Origin: Anaerolineales bacterium
Lineage (GTDB): Bacteria; Chloroflexota; Anaerolineae; Anaerolineales; E44-bin32
DNA length: 64,000 nt
Reading direction: 5' to 3'
Assembly (NCBI GenBank): GCA_034430895.1
Contig: DAOUDW010000087.1
Location: forward strand, 4,408 to 68,407
The notes under the pieces were generated by a model that saw only the letters and a list, made by a program, of their open reading frames with translations, was not told the origin of the DNA and did no database searches. Shown one piece after another: positions 54,517 to 62,306 of this stretch. The position numbers and the translations under genes are program-made. Each line of letters starts with the position of its first letter. Positions within the stretch are counted from its first letter, which is position 1.

Positions 54517-54688
54517 GTAAAGCATAACATGGCCGAATTATAGGGGAATCTCAGCTCGAAAGCCTACCGATATAAAGCATAATGTGGCCGAAAGTGCAAA
54601 AATAAAGCATAAGCTGGCCGTGAGTACTGTAAGCTTACTTTTTATATCGACCGATTCTACACGGACGATGTTTTTCCACCCTACACGG
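54517..54688 (+). repeat. iteron-containing repeat unit U1
   Basis: Three AAAGCATAAnnTGGCCG iterons (54517, 54572, 54602) followed by ACGGACGATGTTTTTCCACCCTACACGG. About 85 percent identical to 62135-62306. Confidence 0.75.
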
Positions 54689-54695
54689 GCCTAGT

Positions 54696-54879
54696 ACCAT
54701 ATTATTGCCGTTTGTACAGCGAATTGCCCCGCAATGTATCTCCGAGAAAAGCTCGATTTGTAGCATATTATTGCCGATTGTGAAATTTTGCACCATATCA
54801 TTGCCATTTGTGAAGACTTAACATAATTGAGGGGGTCTTTGTATTTGATCCATCCGGACGAGGTTTTCCCCCCTACAAG
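54696..54879 (+). repeat. diverged tandem repeat unit U2
   Basis: Three CATATTATTGCCG(A/T)TTGT iterons (54696, 54762, 54792), with spacing similar to U1, followed by CCGGACGAGGTTTTCCCCCCTACAAG. Confidence 0.55.
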
Positions 54880-54942
54880 TTTTTACCCACTACAAGTTTT
54901 CACCCCCACATGATGTTTTTCACTCTGCCTGGCGAATTTTCT

Positions 54943-54966
54943 AGAACGGATGTACATTTTCGGCCA
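54943..54966 (+). repeat. interspersed repeat, GAACGGATGTACATTTTCGGCCA type (contains an inverted TGGCCGA iteron core)
   Basis: Identical over 24 nt to 57641-57664 and similar to 12806-12831. Confidence 0.65.
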
Positions 54967-55189
54967 GCACACTCCAACAAACTCGCTCGGCTAATCGTAG
55001 AAAAAGGATGGAAGGGGGTAAGTATGAAGGTAATCGAGTTGATCTAATTTCGGTTGTAACGAGAAGACTATACCCGCAGTAAATTCCGGTCCCGCCTCAG
55101 TCAGATCTGGTAGATACGTCAAGTCTTTTCACAACGCATATTATCATAACCATCATGGAATTTCAGCCTGCAGTATAGAATGACATCAC

Positions 55190-55215
55190 ACAGACGAGGT
55201 TTTTCCCCCCTACAG
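55190..55215 (+). repeat. interspersed repeat copy
   Basis: cagacgaggtttttcccccctacagg. Confidence 0.6.
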
Positions 55216-59312: not shown

Positions 59313-60171
59313 TTCTTTCTAACAATGATTTTGCTAGATTCTGATACTCATCAGATTTCTGCTTAGAAAAATGGCCAAACAACAACATCAGGGTCGTCCC
59401 CTCGCTGAATAATACACGAATAATACCATCAGCCCAAATCTGTTCATTCGATATCAGTTTTCTCCAATAATGTAGCCGGATTGATTTGATATCTTCGAAA
59501 CTCTCTCGTGGTGATGCATCGAGATCAATTTCAGGAAAGTCATCGAGCTCCCTCCTCCAATCTGTTAGCCAAGATACAAATTCGAACCAAACTGTAGGGA
59601 AACTTAGGTATGTGAACAAATCCTTTCCATAGAACAGGTACAGGTCTAGGCCGTAAATATCCTTTAATTTGTCCAATTGCTCCTGGTAGAACGATTTGCT
59701 TTTTGAAAAGGCTGGATCAACAAAGTACATGATGCCGATTAGATTCTTATGATGCTCTTGGTAGAGCCGATCTAGTTTCTCCTCGAAATTCTTTATCTGA
59801 CCACGCTTCTTTGTTGAGTCATGATCATCCCGCATTTTTTGCTCAATAAAGAAGTGTTTTTTTCCTTTCGCGAAGTATTGATCCAATGATAGCGATGTTT
59901 TATCATCGATGTTGAGAACAAGATCAAGGTTAGTATATCCTTGCTCCGCAAGGATTTCTCGCAGCAATAGTTCAATAGCATCCCCGAACCGAATCTCGTG
60001 AGATTGCAATAGATTTTGAATTATCTTCGCCCGAGGCTTCGTCGGTCGAAAATCACCCAGGTATCTCTCCGGATTCAAAGCAAGTTTCTCAATAATGTTT
60101 ATCTTATCGGCTTCGAATACCTGAGAGTGCAGAAGCCTTATTGCTTTCTTGGAATCCATTCCTAACCCCAC
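59296..60171 (-). CDS. uncharacterised protein, candidate PD-(D/E)XK restriction endonuclease partner of the methyltransferase
   Basis: SLDQYFAKGKKHFFIEQKMRDDHD gives a D-x13-E-x-K arrangement. The gene overlaps the methyltransferase by 17 nt and the upstream gene by 10 nt. Confidence 0.4.
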   Translation of the reverse strand: MGLGMDSKKAIRLLHSQVFEADKINIIEKLALNPERYLGDFRPTKPRAKIIQNLLQSHEIRFGDAIELLLREILAEQGYTNLDLVLNIDDKTSLSLDQYFAKGKKHFFIEQKMRDDHDSTKKRGQIKNFEEKLDRLYQEHHKNLIGIMYFVDPAFSKSKSFYQEQLDKLKDIYGLDLYLFYGKDLFTYLSFPTVWFEFVSWLTDWRRELDDFPEIDLDASPRESFEDIKSIRLHYWRKLISNEQIWADGIIRVLFSEGTTLMLLFGHFSKQKSDEYQNLAKSLLERIDRYY

Positions 60172-60971
60172 GGGATTTTAATGTACCGATGGAGCTTCGT
60201 GCTCCCGATGTTCTCTAATAGCCAGATCTCATCCTCATCAGGTGTTGATTCAGTAATTGCCTTGACAAAAAGGACTAGGAATAGTTGATCGAGCTTTCTA
60301 TGGTATTCTTGTCTATCTTCCTCGTATGGAAAAATGAACCTCACGATGGCAGTTGTCTCATCAACCAGATACGCCTTCCCTTTCTTCTTTGCAGCTTCAG
60401 CTTTGGTTAATACTCCGTCGCCAGTTCGAAATCGGCCTCCAACATGCGAGACAGAGTATCCCCAGAACAGGTCACTTGCTTCGCGAGCAACCCGCTTGTA
60501 GTAATCCGGTATGGATTCGCCATCTTCAAATTCATAAATTGGCGTCAAATCATCAAGATTGGTAGCCTCAAGCCTCTCAATGAGCGTATCTTCGTAAAAG
60601 AGATTATCCAAATTCTGCCGCAGCAGATTCTCATTTCGTAGAGGAAGGTAAAAATCGTAGATCTTTACTAGGTCATGTATTACATGATTATATTTGGAGA
60701 ATATCTGATTTTTCTGCCGGAAGAGATCACGAAAATCAGCCAGCAAGATTAATTTAATATTTCGATCAACATAATACTTCCTGTCAACCATTAAGGTTCC
60801 TGGCTCGAACTTGTCTACAAGGAATTCTCTGATTCTCTTGGAAATATTCGTGGACAAATTCTTTTGTGACCAACCTGTGTAATTTAACAATTCGCGGAAT
60901 ATTATCTCATTTCCTGCTTGCGCTTGGAGATATTCATAACACTTATCGATCTTTCGGAAATTCCTTGGCAT
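60162..60971 (-). CDS. hypothetical protein (269 aa), first gene of the methyltransferase operon
   Basis: Long AT-rich ORF with an N-terminal HTH-like segment (IIFRELLNYTGWSQKNLSTNISKRIREFL). No family recognised by eye. Confidence 0.45.
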   Translation of the reverse strand: MPRNFRKIDKCYEYLQAQAGNEIIFRELLNYTGWSQKNLSTNISKRIREFLVDKFEPGTLMVDRKYYVDRNIKLILLADFRDLFRQKNQIFSKYNHVIHDLVKIYDFYLPLRNENLLRQNLDNLFYEDTLIERLEATNLDDLTPIYEFEDGESIPDYYKRVAREASDLFWGYSVSHVGGRFRTGDGVLTKAEAAKKKGKAYLVDETTAIVRFIFPYEEDRQEYHRKLDQLFLVLFVKAITESTPDEDEIWLLENIGSTKLHRYIKIPWG

Positions 60972-61130
60972 TAGAAATCCTTTCGGCCAATGTCAATGAT
61001 TTGCCTAGGTGTAACCCGGCCTTGATTAAATTAACCCCACTTTCAATACCGATAATAAACTAGCACTAGGCAAATCTGGTTATTTCCTGGGTAGGATTTA
61101 GCAAGTTCTATCACGACGAGCTCTTATCTC

Positions 61131-61859
61131 TTAGAGAATGAAATCAGTATCAGTTTTTAGTGATTCATGTTCGTAATCTTTAGCAAGAGATTCATAATCA
61201 TAAAATGCAATCCGCTCAGAGATTGAATGAAAGGCGGTACGATTTACTTTATCGTGGAATTCGCGACGTCGAGAAGAATGAGCAACGATGATCAAACGAG
61301 TATTGAAGTCTTGAAGATCAAAAAATTTCAGTAATGAATTCTGGAAGTCAGTTGAATGTTCAATTTCGAATAAGCTATGAGGCATATGTCGATTATTAAA
61401 CCAACTTACATCGATTGTCGATGCACGCTTAACTAAGTCCTTATAAGTGAATATCGGGATCTTCTGTAAACTCCTAATTTCTTGAAGATGACAATTTAGA
61501 CAAAGCTTGTTCTTGTCCTGATTTGGTATGAATGTAGAATAGCCTCGCAAATTTCCAAGAGTAGCCAATAGCCCCTGATAATACGAGTGACTTAAAGTAA
61601 TAGACTCTTTCGACAAATCGATCTCATTATCTTCAGAGAAAAGTCCTAAACGACTTCGATATGACTCCAATGCCCAAAGACCTGGTCGAACCTTGAATAT
61701 CTCAGGTCTAACTTGAACAATGCGCCTTATTGAAGCATGTGGAGTTTTGGTTCTCCATTCAACCCCAGGAACCTTTAATGCTTCCCTATATAGCTGGGCT
61801 AAAGTGGCTTGACCGCCAAGACGATCTAATGTTTGAATAACTGCCTCATACTGCTTCAT
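61131..61859 (-). CDS. winged-helix (Mrr_N/HARE-HTH-like) plus nuclease-like C-terminal domain protein
   Basis: N-terminus MKQYEAVIQTLDRLGGQATLAQLYREAL...RPGLWAL. C-terminus IDVSWFNNRHMPHSLFEIEHSTDFQNSLLKF is a D...E-x-E/H arrangement seen in restriction-fold proteins. Confidence 0.5.
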   Translation of the reverse strand: MKQYEAVIQTLDRLGGQATLAQLYREALKVPGVEWRTKTPHASIRRIVQVRPEIFKVRPGLWALESYRSRLGLFSEDNEIDLSKESITLSHSYYQGLLATLGNLRGYSTFIPNQDKNKLCLNCHLQEIRSLQKIPIFTYKDLVKRASTIDVSWFNNRHMPHSLFEIEHSTDFQNSLLKFFDLQDFNTRLIIVAHSSRRREFHDKVNRTAFHSISERIAFYDYESLAKDYEHESLKTDTDFIL

Positions 61860-62134
61860 ATTTATAGATTGTACATTACGACAAGGTGAAATACGGATTG
61901 TCGTCGTATGGTTTTGAACTTCCAAGTTATGTGCTTATGATAGGGAGGTCCTCGCCATAAATACCAACCGCTAACCAAGTATATATAAATCATTCCCCTT
62001 TGCTATATAGATATTTCCAAATTGACGGGTTAATGTATCCTCGGAGGTGTTATGTCGAAATTTTACATAGCATACACTTTCATGCATGCGTAATCAAGCG
62101 GCCATCTATTTTGACACTTTTCTTTCGAGAGTTT

Positions 62135-62306
62135 TATAAAGCATAATATGGCCGGATTACTGGGGAAACTCAGCTTGAAAGCTCTTAGAAATAAAGCATA
62201 ATGTGGCCGAAAGTGCAAAAATAAAGCACAAGCTGGCCGTAAGTTCTTTAAACATCCTTTTCGTCAATACCGATTCTACACGGACAAGGTTTTTCCACCC
62301 TACAGG
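62135..62306 (+). repeat. iteron-containing repeat unit U3 (direct repeat of U1)
   Basis: Iterons at 62135, 62190 and 62221 have the same spacing as in U1, followed by ACACGGACAAGGTTTTTCCACCCTACAGG. Confidence 0.75.

Follow-up and report, generated by a model that had tools for sequence, protein, structure and literature searches.

What are the iteron-bearing direct repeats that lie on either side of a group of defence genes in the genome of an Anaerolineales bacterium? The repeats, labeled U1, U2, and U3, belong to a 64,000-nucleotide (nt) stretch of contig DAOUDW010000087.1 (assembly GCA_034430895.1), which we refer to as the window. A preliminary description had viewed U1 and U3 as bracketing an AT-rich island between an Rhs gene and an orphan Rhs cassette. 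It listed several systems in which short sites recur at fixed spacing, namely replication origins, partition sites, and transposase or recombinase ends, and it suggested that direct repeats around cargo would allow excision or cassette exchange. Comparison with other genomes points very strongly to one of these options: to judge from sequence, the arrays are almost certainly right ends of a Tn7-like transposon of the transfer RNA (tRNA)-targeting branch, in which TnsA and TnsB are fused. We also consider it very likely that the units as a whole are orphan, decayed Tn7-like right ends joined to the terminal repeats of an insertion sequence.

The repeats themselves were largely as first described. 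U1 (54518–54685) and U3 (62137–62304) are direct repeats with 84% identity across 168 nt, close to the 85% originally estimated, and their longest common identical run is 38 nt. Within the window, the 17-mer AAAGCAYAAnnTGGCCG has seven copies, none of them outside these two units. A search with AAAGCAYAANNTGGCCG at up to two mismatches returned seven matches in the 64 kb, every one on the plus strand, at 54496, 54519, 54574, and 54604 in U1 and at 62138, 62193, and 62223 in U3; none of 100 shuffled sequences reached seven copies (mean by chance, 0.29). The 55- and 30-nt spacings reported for three iterons per unit are exact in both U1 and U3, but U1 contains one more site, lying 23 nt upstream, and its four 17-bp TnsAB-type sites (binding predicted) follow one another at 23, 55, and 30 nt. 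The U1 array is a complete right end that runs on the plus strand from 54488, where it opens with the 5′ terminus TGTCACTT, to 54625. U3 is one site short of U1: its three-site array covers 62138–62245 (+) and is preceded at 62098–62137 (+; alignment A2) by a left extension consisting of an inverted half-site, CGGCCA, and TGACACTT, which differs from the TGTCACTT terminus by one base. U2 (54686–54806, +; repeat family D5) is indeed a diverged tandem copy. It has three repeated sites of 22 nt each, of a TTGCCG type, at 54694, 54760, and 54790, and lacks both the terminus and the first site.

Three other candidates were set aside. Inverted TGGCCGA cores at ~54959 and ~57657, which had been listed alongside the iterons, score below 11 of 15 and belong to a repeat of the 5′ end of a DUF4145 gene described below. 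A 12-of-15 site match at 39141 on the minus strand is of the kind expected by chance, shuffled sequences yielding ~15 matches that score at least 11. Finally, the units are not the template and variable repeats of a diversity-generating retroelement: there is no reverse transcriptase, and the differences between units sit between the conserved sites.

Where else do such arrays occur? Two sites 30 nt apart were found at four places in 185,579 species genomes, all of them metagenome-assembled genomes (MAGs) of Chloroflexota. U1 shares 90% identity with one of the four, L003 in MAG N6_271, and their homology begins precisely at TGTCACTT (54488). A looser two-site pattern found 39 stretches in the same set, in Chloroflexota, Acidobacteriota, Bacillus, Ralstonia, Xanthomonadales, and Paceibacterota. 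With one or two stretches per species genome, and the 17-mer limited to U1 and U3 within the 64 kb, an ordinary dispersed repeat of the REP (repetitive extragenic palindromic) or BIME (bacterial interspersed mosaic element) kind is not supported.

Clustering the open reading frames (ORFs) of the loci found by pattern revealed a recurring set of three genes flanked by 17-mer sites. The first encodes a protein of ~890 amino acids (aa) with the Pfam domains TnsA_N, rve, and Mu-transpos_C, that is, a TnsA-TnsB fusion. The second encodes a TniB/TnsC-type AAA ATPase and the third a TniQ protein with a helix-turn-helix (HTH) domain. In five loci (L012, L015, L016, L022, and L037), tnsAB, tniB/tnsC, and tniQ with its HTH domain are flanked by the same 17-mers, and the TnsAB of L015 aligns at 1075 bits with PDB 9bw1, which according to a 2026 preprint is the TnsABC complex of PmcCAST (type I-B2).

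Do the units in the window resemble the ends of such complete sets? Four right ends that adjoin tnsAB in other genomes were combined into a DNA profile, with the window and its close relatives left out. In the window this profile matched U1, U2, and U3 only, each on the plus strand: U1 from its TGT terminus onward (54488–54625, model positions 1–150, E 4.9e-13), U3 at 62139–62245 (model 33–151, E 2.5e-8), and U2 at 54686–54806 (model 24–145, E 1.2e-3). A profile made from tnsAB-adjacent ends aligns U1 end to end, and we read the arrays as Tn7-like right ends. The converse test started from the protein. Eighty loci were fetched through TnsAB homology alone, 78 of them with enough upstream DNA, and 36 of the 78 had a same-strand right-end match that stopped 41–621 nt upstream of tnsAB, full-length or nearly so in every case except one. 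Loci without a match were mostly distant Bacillota homologues or truncated contigs. The layout that emerges is TGT(A/C/G)AC.., site 1, 6 nt, site 2, 38–62 nt, site 3, 13 nt, and site 4, every site facing the same way, and U1 has exactly that layout. A U1-like architecture is also present in L022, L027, L032, L064–L072, and L142. The TTGCCG-type sites of the U2 sub-lineage occur in autonomous Anaerolineales elements (L066, L069, and L072), and U2 is 74% identical to L044 of MAG N6_271. Among the options first listed, it is thus the transposase end sites that the comparison bears out.

The other options fare poorly against the same data. Fixed spacing is origin-like, and at one locus (L004) a tyrosine recombinase adjoins an array, as a replication origin, a partition site, or the arm sites of an integrase might lead one to expect. 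No rep or par gene lies nearby, however, and an integrase accompanies the array at only 2 of the 39 loci (L004 and L002, the latter frameshifted). The arrays begin with TGT and adjoin tnsAB in many phyla, and the same sites flank tnsAB-tnsC-tniQ operons in other genomes. We give these three explanations next to no chance of being correct.

What, then, is the second motif, which the preliminary description had placed at the distal end of each unit? It is present in both U1 and U3, but it does not belong to the iteron system. At up to three mismatches, GTTTTTCCACCCTACA has eight copies in the window (mean by chance, 0.45), at 39199(−), 54670, 54862, 54879, 55199, 57532(−), 57612, and 62289, two of them inverted; the copies beyond the units mark it as a separate repeat. 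The pattern GGAYRAKGTTTTTCCNCCCTACA was found in Anaerolineales MAGs only, frequently close to contig ends, and five of the matches are in N6_271, the MAG that holds L003. In L045 (140–1366) and L050 (3458–4688), GGAYGAKGTTTTTCCNCCCTACA stands at both ends of an insertion sequence of ~1.23 kb, whose inverted repeats surround an rve_3/HTH_32 transposase ORF with its stop codon ~10 nt from the repeat. Miniature elements of 97–169 bp that end in GGAYGAKGTTTTTCCNCCCTACA are present in L044, in L046, and in the window at 57531–57627. We are highly confident from these matches that the second motif, GTTTTTCCNCCCTACA, is the terminal inverted repeat of this ~1.23-kb insertion sequence and of the miniature elements derived from it, a family that is dispersed in Anaerolineales genomes.

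Such repeats recur in the window. Solo terminal repeats lie in U1 (54654–54688, +, outer end 54685; matching L045 and L050) and in U3 (62273–62307, +, outer end 62304). Three or four tandem degenerate copies with a 17-nt period occupy 54847–54916 (+; repeat family D3), half of a miniature element from this insertion-sequence family lies at 55125–55216 (+), and another half or remnant lies upstream of the Rhs gene at 39199–39299 (−). The 97-bp miniature element at 57531–57627 is complete (repeat families I1, I2, and D6), having a terminal inverted repeat on either side, and interrupts a short iteron-flank fragment at 57509–57530. A further miniature-element remnant is present at 21530–21608, near a gene with immunoglobulin (Ig) domains at 18004–21066. 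In two relatives (L044 1–1057 and L051 2836–3320), homologues of this Ig-domain gene and right-end arrays are only a few kb apart, which indicates that the region has been rearranged between genomes.

As to the position of the terminal repeat relative to the arrays, a single copy lies 34 nt beyond site 4 in U1 and U3, its outer end facing away from the sites. In the relatives, tnsAB starts 41–70 nt beyond site 4, so the terminal repeat occupies the place where tnsAB would be expected to begin. Copies in or beside right-end arrays are found at three spots in the window (54654–54688, 54847–54877, and 62273–62307), and in N6_271 the terminal repeat abuts U2-type arrays (L043 324–346 and L044 5415–5437); the junction positions differ, and the U2 composite is 74% conserved between N6_271 and the window. 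The insertion sequence may preferentially target Tn7-like right ends, or the composite may be old and shared. We rejected the idea that the motif belongs to the Tn7-like end or is its target site, since none of the 39 family loci has it and a distinct insertion sequence carries it as its terminal repeat. A promoter role was also set aside: a consensus scan gave 27 promoter-like sites, compared with 21.9 ± 3.9 in shuffles, and was uninformative.

Could U1 and U3 nevertheless serve as functional recombination sites, with the 7.6-kb island between them excised or exchanged as a cassette? They are 84% identical direct repeats with the 38-nt identical run, and the DNA between them is low in GC and carries defence genes. 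The image of an AT-rich island bracketed by two repeats does not hold, however: the low-GC stretch runs from ~53000 to ~63000, past U3, and there is a fourth unit, U4, ~1.2 kb beyond the window end. As first reported, no recombinase lies inside the island, none appearing among the Pfam or tblastn results, and next to it there is only an unrelated IS3 element. Two right ends in direct orientation cannot be paired by a Tn7-type transposase. U1 and U3 are both right ends in the same orientation, and so they do not delimit a Tn7-type element.

Related contigs, found via exact-protein matches to two window proteins, bear on the same question. Contig L041 overlaps the window at 62240–64000 with 99.8% identity and continues beyond its end with, in order, the IS3-family element, a Lon_C fragment, and U4, which has the orientation of the other units and is truncated, its terminal site being absent. 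Contigs from three Joint Genome Institute (JGI) samples match the window arrangement at ≥99.8% wherever they overlap it, and the only structural differences among the metagenome contigs are insertion-sequence insertions. In variant L056 (2135–4556), which represents the same population in another sample, an IS21-family IstA/IstB element sits at 60826, within an unknown 269-aa ORF. Variant L040 (1–123), whose sample also yielded an exact match to the window, diverges at 62145, within the first U3 site, into unrelated DNA with an ORF that begins MRTYAQLTQ…; we take these nine residues to resemble the N-terminus of an IS30-type protein, and on that basis the divergence is probably another insertion-sequence insertion. 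The contigs found contained neither an empty site nor an excision junction, although the collections are incomplete: the metagenome scan missed even the window's own U1, so that absence from it carries no information. With right ends that cannot pair, no left end, at least four units, and insertion-sequence variants only, excision or cassette exchange through U1 and U3 is highly improbable. Deletion of the RecA type between the 38-nt identical runs is possible; no instance was observed.

If the arrays are right ends, what do the corresponding left ends look like? In this family the left end has two direct sites followed by an inverted site ending …TCACA. Nine of the 23 full-length left ends lie near a gene for a tRNA or for transfer-messenger RNA (tmRNA), at 26–31 nt from the gene's 3′ end, the targets being tRNA-Arg, tRNA-Ala, tRNA-Met, and tmRNA. 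Only the Bacillus relatives use tmRNA (ssrA), with the left end 30–31 nt from its 3′ end (L020 3333–3793 and L021 577–1044). Hsieh & Peters 2023 (PMC9881144) describe TnsA and TnsB as one fused protein across the tRNA-targeting branch, insertion 29 ± 1 bp past the tRNA, and a left end with sites in both orientations; we found no mention of a tmRNA target in the literature cited here on this branch.

These findings raise a further question: how could several right ends have come to stand together in one orientation? In active relatives, TnsAB would bind the 17-bp sites and pair the right end with the left end, and TnsC together with a TniQ/TnsD-type selector would direct insertion 26–31 bp past a tRNA or tmRNA gene. 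We lean towards a history of stacked, decayed Tn7-like elements with defence cargo. Several such elements, or non-autonomous derivatives of them, would have inserted successively at one site and then decayed, losing their core genes and left ends and keeping defence and toxin cargo: a patatin-like phospholipase, a DUF4145 protein, a type II restriction-modification pair, and an Rhs toxin cassette. The composite ends would have been homogenised by gene conversion among units. Two features suggest this history. First, U3, U4, and L051 have a common left extension, CGGCCAnnTAT.TTGACACTT…, in which an inverted half-site is followed by the one-base variant of the TGTCACTT terminus, and we take it to be what remains of a place where a left end met a right end. 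Second, the left part of U4 is like U3 and its right part like U1, a mosaic that points to gene conversion among units.

A number of observations weigh against this account. That TnsAB binds the 17-mer is a prediction from where the site lies, how well it is conserved, and how the ends of this branch are described in the literature. Searches of the window for tnsAB, tnsC, and tniQ (tblastn, two query sets, E up to 1e-4) returned no match, and Pfam identified no tns core genes among the island ORFs; what the window contains is thus a set of ends and no autonomous transposon. A left-end profile gave no full-length match in the window, compared with 23 in other loci, and no match at all across the 64 kb even at E up to 10; nor does the window contain a cluster of inverted 17-mers. 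It also has no tRNA or tmRNA gene and no known RNA family (Rfam). With neither a left end nor a tRNA or tmRNA gene in the window, the stacked-element history cannot be demonstrated here. The window has no two-ended element, the flanks of a mini-element in relative L032 (tttcg / tttct) are ambiguous as a 5-bp duplication, and the sequence to the right is known only up to ~65.3 kb. Moreover, the composite of array and terminal repeat is conserved across U1, U3, and U4, and its U2 type recurs in MAG N6_271, so the units could stem from segmental duplication of one composite rather than from several insertions. In the absence of tns genes, a left end, and a tRNA target, the units appear to be inactive fossils that are not transposable as they stand.

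The conservation of the composite deserves a closer look, because it allows a rival history in which a single composite arose once and was copied locally by segmental duplication or gene conversion, the units being recombination joints. Past the last site, U1 and U3 have spacer and terminal repeat in common, U1 and U2 stand in tandem, U4 is a U3/U1 mosaic, and the U2-type composite has been kept in N6_271, all of which such copying would explain. It fits less well with the intact TGT terminus of U1, at which the homology to L003 stops exactly, with the membership of U2 in another site sub-lineage (TTGCCG) that has autonomous elements of its own, and with the inverted half-site in U3, U4, and L051, as expected at a junction of two elements. 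On balance we judge local copying of one composite to be unlikely. The composite has at least four copies in one orientation, each upstream of a different defence or toxin cassette and kept 84–94% alike, apparently through gene conversion, and is also conserved in a second Anaerolineales genome. This pattern admits the more speculative thought that it is a maintained lineage-specific module, perhaps providing portable homology for shuffling cassettes on the Rhs side or a TnsAB-binding decoy for target immunity; we regard this reading as a long shot.

Alternatively, the units may be non-autonomous elements that an autonomous copy elsewhere could mobilise in trans, their left ends being too degenerate or too distant to be seen. 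A ~330-bp mini-element with both ends does exist beside a full copy in L032, the terminus and four sites of U1 are intact, and autonomous relatives occur in Anaerolineales (L064, L065, and L069). Three features make mobilisation improbable nonetheless: the lack of any left-end match in the 64 kb, the loss of the terminal site from U2, U3, and U4, and the presence of an insertion-sequence terminal repeat where the interior of the transposon should begin. Tandem stacking, with clean junctions of the kind proposed for U3, U4, and L051, occurs elsewhere in this Tn7-like family, the loci with such junctions or with the mini-element being L001, L002, L032, L052, L054, L057, and L058. In six of them (L001 6646–6760, L002 1794–1900, L052, L054, L057, and L058) a left and a right end abut, with 0–4 nt between …ACA and TGT…. 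These loci are from high-GC Chloroflexia, and the gap is smaller than the 5-bp duplication expected between independent insertions; exact tandem stacking or some other process may lie behind it.

We now return to the genes around the units, and to the stacked-element history preferred above. The first is a patatin-like phospholipase gene (55358–57364, −; Pfam Patatin E 6.9e-20), classed by PADLOC as a phospholipase effector. Since a terminator-like hairpin (57334–57360, − strand) lies within the 5′ part of the called ORF, the real start is probably a downstream methionine (MPDLDPERD…). The DUF4145 gene follows at 57648–58007 (+; Pfam DUF4145 E 2.5e-5). Its upstream region and first codons are duplicated at 54916–54971 (+), as seen in the ORF translations; the two copies (repeat family D4, 54916–54971 and 57614–57669) are 56 nt long, 79% identical, and cover the 5′ end of the ORF (MYIFG...). 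The type II restriction-modification pair (58137–60171, −; Pfam, PADLOC) comprises an N6/N4 methyltransferase with a RAMA domain (58137–59312, −) and a HinfI-like endonuclease (59296–60171, −), the HinfI Pfam family being recorded on the matching contig L040. The 269-aa ORF and an NmeDI_C-like endonuclease-type ORF complete the cargo at 60162–61925 (−). Beyond U3, a small ORF precedes the orphan Rhs C-terminal cassette (62561–63195, +), identified by the …YNDPTGHY… motif in its translation. The cassette is truncated by the IS3-family element, whose ends read TGAGACAAAAC… and which extends from 63196 to ~64679 with its rve transposase at 63241–63900. Transport as transposon cargo is the most likely origin of the defence genes next to the Rhs toxin gene. 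In the survey of Benler et al. 2021 (PMC8649781), no defence system is carried by Tn7-like elements more often than restriction-modification, and ~30% of these elements contain insertion sequences.

The Rhs/YD-repeat protein to the left of U1 (39792–54269) is 4825 aa long, with many tandem repeats of ~95 aa (…YAFDE.TYTGYHATTD…FWSGE.NHC…) and a low-GC C-terminal toxin region; the 219 nt from its stop codon to the transposon terminus at 54488 contain no obvious immunity gene. Further left, the window encodes a TrwB/TraG-type coupling protein of type IV secretion and a DnaB-like helicase (33–1814 and 7116–8183), which hint at a conjugative or integrative element at that end.

What do these results mean? 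The iteron repeat belongs to a transposon of a type already known; it is neither an origin nor a partition site, nor is it demonstrably an excision system. The 17-mer array, with its TGT terminus and spacings of 23, ~40–60, and 30 nt, provides an annotatable mark of the right ends of TnsAB-fusion, tRNA- or tmRNA-targeting elements across Chloroflexota, Acidobacteriota, Bacillota, and further phyla, and can serve to fix the limits of these elements and what they carry. The locus is a graveyard of mobile-element ends rather than an excisable island. That the terminal repeat of a single insertion sequence recurs beside Tn7-like right ends is a minor, unexplained lead.

How does the locus compare with known systems? 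The tRNA-targeting branch with the TnsA-TnsB fusion includes the type I-B2 PmcCAST and the type I-D McCAST and CyCAST (PMC9881144; Faure et al. 2023, PMC10293859). Like the PmcCAST/McCAST branch, the autonomous 17-mer relatives encode a TnsAB fusion, TnsC, and TniQ, and the 1075-bit alignment of the L015 TnsAB is with that of PmcCAST itself (9bw1). The relatives' left ends have both site orientations, and insertion at 26–31 nt agrees with the published 29 ± 1 bp. In contrast, the window has direct right-end arrays only, with no tns genes, left end, tRNA target, or CRISPR module, and the hosts here are Anaerolineales and other non-cyanobacterial phyla. The right end of Tn7 likewise has a 5′-TGT terminus and four same-orientation sites beside the transposase genes. 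It differs in site sequence and in arrangement, the sites here being non-overlapping and spaced at 23, 38–62, and 30 nt; moreover, in the present family TnsA and TnsB are fused, and insertion is directed at a tRNA gene, not at glmS. Tn7-like insertions that are stacked or in tandem, as noted by Benler et al. 2021 (PMC8649781), resemble our locus in having several ends per locus, restriction-modification cargo, and nested insertion sequences, whereas in the window core genes and left ends have all been lost and the stacking is deduced. Finally, the second motif behaves like the terminus of an rve insertion sequence (tentatively IS481/IS3-like, ~1.23 kb), standing at both ends of the elements in L045 and L050 and of the miniature elements; unlike those, U1, U2, and U3 keep a single terminal repeat, always just inside a Tn7-like right end.

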